Assembly: GCF_055900595.2 (NCBI RefSeq)
Contig: NZ_CM148325.1
Reading direction: 5' to 3' (one strand)
DNA: 64,000 nt
A program made the translations under genes and the position numbers. The notes beneath the pieces are model-generated. The model searched no databases. It saw only the letters and a list, made by a program, of their open reading frames with translations, and was not told the DNA's origin. Of this stretch, positions 35,145 through 35,825 are shown piece after piece. Numbering within the stretch: the first letter of the stretch is position 1; each line of letters begins with the position of its first letter.

Positions 35145-35176
35145 CAAGGGCGCGCAAACCCTCTATACTGCGCGCC
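35145..35176 (+). promoter_or_regulatory. rnpB promoter (-10 TATACT with GC-rich discriminator)
   Basis: ggtgacaagggcgcgcaaaccctctatactgcgcgcc immediately 5' of the mature M1 RNA; the -35 region overlaps the garK stop codon. Confidence 0.5.
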
Positions 35177-35553
35177 GAAGCTGACCAGACAGTCGCCGCT
35201 TCGTCGTCGTCCTTTTCGGGGGAGACGGGCGGAGGGGAGGAAAGTCCGGGCTCCATAGGGCAGGGTGCCAGGTAACGCCTGGGGGGGAAACCCACGACCA
35301 GTGCAACAGAGAGCAAACCGCCGATGGCCCGTGCAAGCGGGATCAGGTAAGGGTGAAAGGGTGCGGTAAGAGCGCACCGCGCGGCTGGTAACAGTCCGTG
35401 GCACGGTAAACTCCACCCGGAGCAAGGCCAAATAGGGGTTCATAAGGTACGGCCCGTACTGAACCCGGGTAGGCTGCTTGAGCCAGTGAGCGATTGCTGG
35501 CCTAGATGAATGACTGTCCACGACAGAACCCGGCTTATCGGTCAGTTTCACCT
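35177..35553 (+). ncRNA. rnpB: RNase P RNA (M1 RNA), 377 nt
   Basis: Sequence gaagctgaccagacagtcgccgcttcg…agggcagggtgccaggtaacgcctggggggg…cggtcagtttcacct matches E. coli M1 RNA as I recall it, including the conserved GGAAAGTCCGGGCTCC region. ORF-track entries 35023-35316 and 35084-35551 on the minus strand are artefacts. Confidence 0.95.
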
Positions 35554-35564
35554 ATTTTAACGAA

Positions 35565-35596
35565 AACCCGCCAGCGTAAACTGGCGGGTTTTTGCT
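35565..35596 (+). terminator. Rho-independent terminator of rnpB
   Basis: cccgccag-cgtaaa-ctggcggg hairpin followed by TTTTT. Confidence 0.7.
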
Positions 35597-35825
35597 TTTG
35601 AGGAGGGTGGTCGGAAAGATGAACGTCTTATCTGGCCTACAAAACAACGAAAATTCAATATATTGCACAGAGGCAATGTAGGCCTGATAAGCGTAGCGCC
35701 TCAGGCAATTTTGTGTTTATCATCAGTCTCGAATCTGCTTCGGCAAGCTTTTACTTTTGGTGCAGACGGAAAGATGAACGAATATCTAAGCTATTAATAA
35801 TAGACTTTGCAAGAAATCATTACAT

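Follow-up and report, generated by a model that had tools for sequence, protein, structure and literature searches.

The garK-rnpB locus in the 64,000-nucleotide stretch of DNA analysed here (the window) very probably consists of the ordinary parts of this locus followed by a collapsed repeat array, of which only short remnants are left. The initial annotation had noticed a 14-bp direct repeat downstream of the rnpB terminator. By its sequence, this 14-mer is a fragment of the junction that follows the terminators in a long repeat family, rather than an independent repeat or a target-site duplication. The biology of the locus is known, and the allele is rare and already public; what is added here is the identity of the two 14-mers, the collapsed form of the array with its T2-type terminator, and the range of copy number.

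The gene for glycerate 2-kinase, garK, occupies 33999-35144 of the + strand and ends with the TGA stop codon at 35142-35144. Its open reading frame extends from 33918 to 35144 and, from residue 28 of the frame onward, matches K-12 GarK at 377 of 381 residues (99%). (RefSeq likewise annotates garK in the identical strain Z0117EC0005.) The proximal promoter of rnpB is located at 35141-35176 on the same strand, as judged from a promoter scan, from identity with K-12, and from conservation across genera. Scanning for consensus elements yields a single strong promoter, with a -35 hexamer, GTGACA, at 35141-35146, a 17-nt spacer, and a -10 hexamer, TATACT, at 35164-35169, with 10 of the 12 positions matching the consensus; a GC-rich discriminator, GCGCGCC, follows at 35170-35176. 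The -10 element ends 7 nt before 35177, which is the 5' end of rnpB RNA according to both Rfam and the RefSeq annotation. These are the features of a sigma-70 promoter: near-consensus hexamers, a spacer of 16-18 nt, and a distance of 6-8 nt to the 5' end. As the initial annotation had pointed out, the -35 region overlaps the end of garK. In particular, the first base of the hexamer closes the final Gly codon, the next three are the TGA stop, and the last two lie past the end of the gene.

The window does not differ from K-12 MG1655 between the last garK codons and +1, and the K-12 proximal promoter of the garPLRK-rnpB unit has the same -35 element with its embedded garK stop, the same -10 element, and the same GC-rich discriminator, with no differences. 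The layout extends well beyond Escherichia; (G/A)TGACA with the embedded stop, the -10 element, and the discriminator are also kept in Salmonella, Citrobacter, Klebsiella, Kosakonia, Kluyvera, Intestinirhabdus, and Enterobacter. From the identity with K-12 and the conservation across these eight genera, we infer that rnpBp is active in the window and would start transcription at 35177. (Upstream 'tandem promoters' are the title subject of a paper by Motamedi, Lee and Schmidt in PNAS in 1984.)

The interval between the garK stop and rnpB +1 is only 32 nt, and a simple terminator scanner found no terminator-like site in it on the + strand. A CRISPRi preprint (10.1101/2020.03.04.975888) describes garP-garL-garR-garK-rnpB as a single transcription unit in which rnpBp is an internal (intra-operonic) promoter, one that rescues rnpB when the upstream genes are blocked. 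Because the gap is this short, no terminator was found in it, and the preprint treats the genes as a single unit, the read-through from garK into rnpB that had been proposed initially is plausible. Transcripts of garPLRK would enter rnpB without meeting a terminator, and rnpB's own promoter would supply most of the M1 RNA. Such read-through is a reasonable expectation and already belongs to the accepted annotation.

The gene for M1 RNA, the class A RNase P RNA, is found at 35177-35553 (+ strand), where the Rfam family RF00010 (RNaseP_bact_a) matches over its full length (1-367) with 320.1 bits. It differs from K-12 rnpB by only 2 substitutions, at 35214 and 35332, and the sequence from the end of garK to the rnpB 3' end is otherwise identical. 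One substitution is a C>T change in the loop tcctCttcgg; the other is a C>T change in cccgCgcaagcggg, where, by a reading of the helix, a U-G wobble would replace a C-G pair. Neither looks likely to disturb the structure.

Downstream of the mature RNA, a 3' precursor tail and an intrinsic terminator of a type designated T2 occupy 35554-35600 (+ strand), as seen from an inverted repeat and from folding. An AUUUU-rich tail leads into perfect 12-nt arms (35563-35574 and 35581-35592) that enclose the loop CGTAAA, and the U-rich sequence TGCTTTT comes next. The hairpin (35563-35592) has a computed dG of -26.4 kcal/mol and a z score of -6.0 relative to shuffled sequences; thus, T2 has the GC-rich hairpin directly followed by a U-tract that defines an intrinsic terminator (the simple scanner missed it). 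The live terminator of K-12, in contrast, is the T1 hairpin cccgcTTCGgcggg, which appears as 'rnpBT1' in synthetic-biology terminator collections (PMC3643576), whereas that of the window is the T2 stem-loop cccgccagCGTAAActggcggg. The T2 sequence is also found after rnpB in strain VCSW7 and within the downstream units of other strains. As deduced from the hairpin, T2 would end the primary rnpB transcript, and its U-rich 3' tail would then be trimmed, by analogy with K-12.

The K-12 spacer between rnpB and yhaC contains a tandem repeat of 113 bp in 3.5 copies with 96% matches, and the longer repeat that the initial annotation had mentioned for K-12 is therefore indeed present at this site. (A repeat of 113 bp in the 3'-flanking region of K-12 rnpB was reportedly described by Reed and Altman in PNAS in 1983.) The K-12 unit opens with AGATGAATGACTGTCCACGAC, the beginning of a stretch that copies, with divergence, the final ~50 nt of rnpB. 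In this stretch, a 12-nt insertion and two substitutions produce GCTATACCCAAAAGAAAG, and CGGCTTATCGGTCAGTTTCACCT follows. The terminator is copied next, and the unit is completed by a purine-rich junction, GCTTTTGGAGGGGCAGAAAGATGAATG, whose end, AGATGAA, is the point at which homology to the 3' end of rnpB itself (AGATGAATGACTG...) begins again.

The window has the same locus and the same building blocks as the K-12 family, namely, the pseudo 3' end of rnpB, the terminator, and the AGATGAA junction. However, in place of the 3.5 tandem units of K-12, the window retains a junction stub and a decayed end unit, with no unit intact. When the two sequences are aligned, all 3.5 K-12 units are absent from the window. 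TRF detects no long-period tandem array in the window, and downstream of rnpB it contains no unit-body motif and hence no full member of the family. What is found at the orthologous position are remnants of the family, a junction at 35594-35625 and a decayed terminator with its junction at 35737-35781.

The first of these remnants (35594-35625, + strand) is the junction motif GCTTTTGAGGAGGGTGGTCGGAAAGATGAACG, a repeat-unit stub that holds the first 14-mer. It corresponds to the K-12 junction found after every K-12 terminator, and its closest variant is GGTCGGAAAGATGA, from Escherichia sp. MOD1-EC7003. It runs into a BIME at 35622-35706 (+ strand), recognized by its inverted repeat and by alignment to the K-12 BIME. 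The window BIME comprises a truncated left REP (35622-35640), the IHF-like core AATTCAATATATTG (35652-35665), and an intact right REP (35678-35706). The inverted REP arms, 35627-35641 and 35677-35691, are 93% complementary. With a BIME or RIP-type REP pair, this element shares inverted REP palindromes around a conserved linker with the core that is a predicted IHF site; unlike a standard BIME, however, its left REP lacks the 5' arm GCCGGATGCGGCG, and only the intact right REP, GTAGGCCTGATAAGCGTAGCGCCTCAGGC, can form a hairpin. The window BIME aligns with the K-12 BIME from (G)TGAACG(C/T)CTTATC onward and is its homologue (orthologue) at the same site. Against the curated REP-derived Rfam family ES036, the window copy scores 19.8 bits, below the gathering threshold of 37.6; the K-12 copy, at 32.7 bits, also falls below it.

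The second remnant, at 35707-35781 (+ strand), is a decayed repeat unit, consisting of what is left of a pseudo 3' end, a decayed T1 (CTGCTTCGGCAAGCTTTTACTTTTGG), and a second junction that holds the second 14-mer. Between 35737 and 35781, 36 of 45 positions are identical to the K-12 terminator and junction, giving a score of 38, compared with 13.9 +/- 2.2 and a maximum of 21 for shuffled sequences. As RNA, the decayed terminator copy folds no better than shuffles (z -0.56).

The 14-mer itself, CGGAAAGATGAACG, occurs exactly, and twice only, at 35612-35625 and 35767-35780, 155 nt apart and on either side of the BIME. The initial annotation was thus correct about the two exact copies, although the element that they bracket is a BIME, a pair of REPs, and not the single REP that it had described. 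A pair arising by chance was considered and rejected: by our own estimate, the expectation for an exact pair within ~280 nt is ~1e-4. With 2 mismatches allowed, 64-kb shuffles contain a mean of only 0.66 matches to the 14-mer. Judged from what precedes each of them, the first 14-mer is the junction after the live terminator, and the second is the junction after the decayed terminator copy beside yhaC.

An exact repeat that directly flanks a BIME could also be a target-site duplication, made by the insertion of the REP/BIME or of a 155-bp segment holding it, and removal of one copy plus 141 nt does leave the layout of the simple VCSW7 allele (rnpB-T2-junction-yhaC). We regard this as very improbable. 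Dissection of 15 sequences (the window and 14 E. coli loci) into modules places the junction motif after every terminator, whether a BIME is present or not (MLI106K3, O157:H7, and IHE3034 have junctions without a BIME), which indicates that the motif predates the BIME. In addition, the similarity runs beyond the second 14-mer into the decayed terminator, the left REP is truncated rather than complete, and there are K-12-type alleles that have the BIME at the same place but not the exact flanking repeat. A target-site duplication should be present as a single copy at empty sites; the motif instead recurs after terminators, and the 18 carriers of the window allele (see below) include no empty-site allele. 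REP/BIME elements are, moreover, not known to make target duplications. Since the junction motif follows every terminator regardless of the BIME, target-site duplication was excluded as the origin of the 14-mers.

A different role for the junction is suggested by the K-12 units, in which a GGAGG that could serve as a Shine-Dalgarno sequence lies 9 nt upstream of an ATG (AGATGAAT...) that opens a 38-codon ORF in each unit, the stop codon overlapping the next ATG as ATGA. The 1983 description of the region is said to have noted ORFs as well. If the repeats encoded small proteins, the mini-ORFs starting from the 14-mers of the window would have 20 and 7 codons; however, these either enter REP sequence or stop after 7 codons. 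Furthermore, the frame is not conserved (Klebsiella has a 1-nt deletion in the insert, and the T2-type units, of 120 nt, have no stop), the Shine-Dalgarno sequence is absent in several lineages (SCPM, Salmonella), and the conservation is at the nucleotide level. A coding function is thus extremely unlikely.

The reading of the 14-mers as junction fragments of a collapsed array also suggests how the collapse may have occurred. Compared with O111 RM9322, whose spacer has the order rnpB-T2-junction-unit-T3-BIME-end, the window has no unit body and no T3 (a decayed terminator), and its left REP is without the left arm. The flanking sequences are joined as GATGAA|CG, at a TGAA that the unit start AGATGAAT has in common with the REP sequence GCGTGAACG. 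This arrangement fits a deletion by microhomology at the shared TGAA, in which the unit body after the first junction would have been lost together with the left half of the adjoining REP. The deletion scenario and the TGA(A) microhomology are reconstructions, because no intermediate allele that links the window haplotype to K-12-like ones was found; among the matches listed, the next best is ~77% identical. The two 14-mers of the window are identical at 14 of 14 positions, whereas the homologous K-12 junctions differ from one another (CAGAAAGATGAATG versus GGGTAAGATGAATA); to explain this identity, one must invoke gene conversion over a short tract, a junction variant specific to the lineage, or coincidence. 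As to the array in general, we infer from its structure that copy number would change by unequal recombination or slippage between the rnpB 3' end and its pseudo-copies.

In the 15 sequences dissected, the spacer combines one set of modules into different mosaics; the set includes T1 or T2 terminators, the decayed T3, units, the BIME, and, by the yhaC stop, an end unit that has decayed. Its length is 86 nt in IHE3034 (rnpB-T1-junction), 98 nt in VCSW7 (rnpB-T2-junction), ~600 nt in K-12, and more in O104:H4; in most E. coli, the array is made of tandem 113-120-bp units. The K-12 unit has matches in 5399 of 5426 complete E. coli genomes, at 1 to 9 places per genome (median 2), as was expected from the initial suggestion that repeat number may differ between strains. 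(K-12 itself has 4 places, which are rnpB's own 3' end and 3 units.) When at least 80% of the unit must be covered, a criterion that requires a real extra unit, 3658 of the 5426 genomes have at least one such place; roughly a third of E. coli genomes thus have no extra unit, and the window, with zero, resembles them in this respect. The window haplotype (35545-36600, at 98.5% identity or above) is a rare allele, present in 18 RefSeq genomes, all with the same span of 1055-1056 nt.

The rnpB-yhaC spacer would accordingly be described as a length-polymorphic minisatellite with 0 to ~8 extra units. Such a minisatellite can be a source of confusion in assembly and annotation, and strain typing could make use of it as a marker. 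None of seven 'ms' MLVA primer pairs (PMC8215070) is found in the window, and none of the loci that they amplify has the 113-bp unit.

Insertion sequences were observed in the arrays of two strains. In E. coli O104:H4 FDAARGOS_348 (~1800-2900 of the locus extract), a transposase gene of IS621, an IS110-family element, follows the array, and the right REP of the BIME is broken up by the insertion (GAGATGGCGTAG|ATACTG...). IS621 has a reported preference for REP sequences, which this insertion fits. In E. coli 2015C-3121 (~1540-2300 of the locus extract), IS1A has inserted into the first repeat unit, and a truncated tdcD comes directly after it; a deletion has removed the BIME, yhaC, yhaB, and tdcR as well as the beginning of the tdc operon.

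On the far side of the array, an AT-rich, convergent gene of the yhaC family is found as an ORF at 35826-36995 on the - strand. It represents a divergent allele of 389 aa, 65% identical in amino acid sequence to K-12 YhaC, and is annotated by RefSeq as a hypothetical protein in the identical strain; in the window haplotype, this allele is linked to the collapsed array. Because garK is 99% identical to K-12 and yhaC only 65%, the rnpB 3' end is a divergence boundary. The boundary is sharp, with 33999-35553 near K-12 and 35554-37745 divergent. E. whittamii and cryptic-clade genomes do not have the yhaC-yhaB segment, whose GC content is 26-35%; their homology to the window begins again near position 37745. 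The B2 strain IHE3034 retains only pseudogene fragments of the segment. From these features, yhaC-yhaB looks like a hypervariable, horizontally acquired islet.

The 3' ends of tRNA and tmRNA genes serve as targets of integrative elements, and the pseudo 3' ends of rnpB might similarly be attL/attR-like footprints of elements that integrated at the rnpB 3' end, with yhaC-yhaB as a remnant. Partial copies of an RNA-gene 3' end do adjoin the variable AT-rich islet, the islet is missing from the genomes just named, and the final unit of several species ends abruptly at unrelated DNA. However, there is no integrase nearby and no unit remnant on the far side of yhaB, and integration does not leave behind units in immediate tandem, without intervening DNA. 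Among the phage and plasmid records searched, no genuine one carries an attP-like copy; the matches are either misfiled chromosomal pieces or short and terminator-like. In a literature search, no paper on rnpB as an integration site in enterobacteria came up, nor anything relevant on rnpB together with yhaC. Footprints of integration are therefore a poor explanation, one that we hold to be highly unlikely. (The misfiled records, which carry chromosomal garK-rnpB-tdcA and are evidently parts of chromosomes or entire chromosomes, are NZ_LN868944.1 (728 kb), NZ_CP129771.1 (692 kb), and NZ_OL790696.1 (4.8 Mb) in PLSDB and AGRM01000002.1 and OR851195.1 in INPHARED; matches in these collections need checking before they are used as evidence for mobile elements.)

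Repeat units of this kind extend beyond E. coli. Species-representative genomes were scanned with the rnpB 3' end, and the loci were then read. Units follow rnpB in E. whittamii, E. albertii (where they are decayed), cryptic Escherichia, and Citrobacter (1-2 copies). K. pneumoniae has 3.2 copies of a 116-bp unit (1416-1785 of one of two locus extracts), and in Salmonella Senftenberg 6.3 copies were counted, their hairpins being of both the T1 and the T2 type (1499-2226 of the locus extract). The loci of S. arizonae and S. diarizonae have no units, nor do Kluyvera, Kosakonia, and Enterobacter kpr-6. In Citrobacter sp. Awk 4, a GC-rich, apparently structured insert of ~150 nt (…GGGGAAACACCGGGATTTGGTTCCCGGAGGGACGCCAAACCCGGTGGTCGCCCCGGG…) replaces the terminator after unit 1; it is bounded by inverted arms resembling CTTAGCTTCGGCTAACACCGTTAACTTAAGC and GCTTAAGCTAACGGTGTTACCGC and sits between unit 1 and a further, truncated unit.

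When representative units are aligned, the 18-nt segment GCTATACCCAAAAGAAAG, which is not derived from rnpB, is nearly invariant in Escherichia, Salmonella, Klebsiella, and Citrobacter, unlike the junction spacer, which varies. Almost all units have an intact hairpin and U-tract, with two stem types plus variant stems; in the rnpB-proximal terminator of E. whittamii, for example, CCTGCCAG pairs with TTGGCAGG. This conservation exceeds what is expected of a neutral spacer; selection, gene conversion anchored on the flanking rnpB-like blocks, or horizontal spread may explain it.

Under selection, the units would be kept either as back-up terminators that insulate yhaC/tdc or as an RNA or DNA element, and the window would be a loss-of-function variant. 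This is a tentative possibility, doubtful in our judgement, for which the presence of units in four genera, the near-invariant 18-nt segment, and the maintenance of hairpin and U-tract all speak. Against it, the third of E. coli without an extra unit includes B2 strains such as IHE3034 as well as the window haplotype, several genera have no units at all, and gene conversion from rnpB could by itself keep the rnpB-like blocks uniform. Nor does the unit body give a structural signal beyond the terminator: its z score is -0.67, that of the whole unit is -2.1, and the predicted fold contains no strong helix besides the terminator. E-value scans with Rfam, run on the window and on K-12, returned only RNase P, plus sub-threshold REP-derived and spurious matches, and thus no family to which the unit would belong. 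The stronger statement, that selection maintains the pseudo-3'-end unit in Enterobacteriaceae for a function and that it is not just neutral debris of duplication, we consider somewhat less likely still.

For an essential transcript, that of M1 RNA, these comparisons suggest that the terminator at which it would end, T1 or T2, differs between strains. The importance of the locus for biology at large is small, and the conservation of the unit across genera is the only feature possibly worth an experiment. If the unit were indeed a functional element, alleles without intact units, such as that of the window, would be natural knock-outs with which to find the role of the array; the array may insulate the convergent yhaC/tdc genes from the very strong rnpB promoter, or it may affect the formation of the M1 RNA 3' end.
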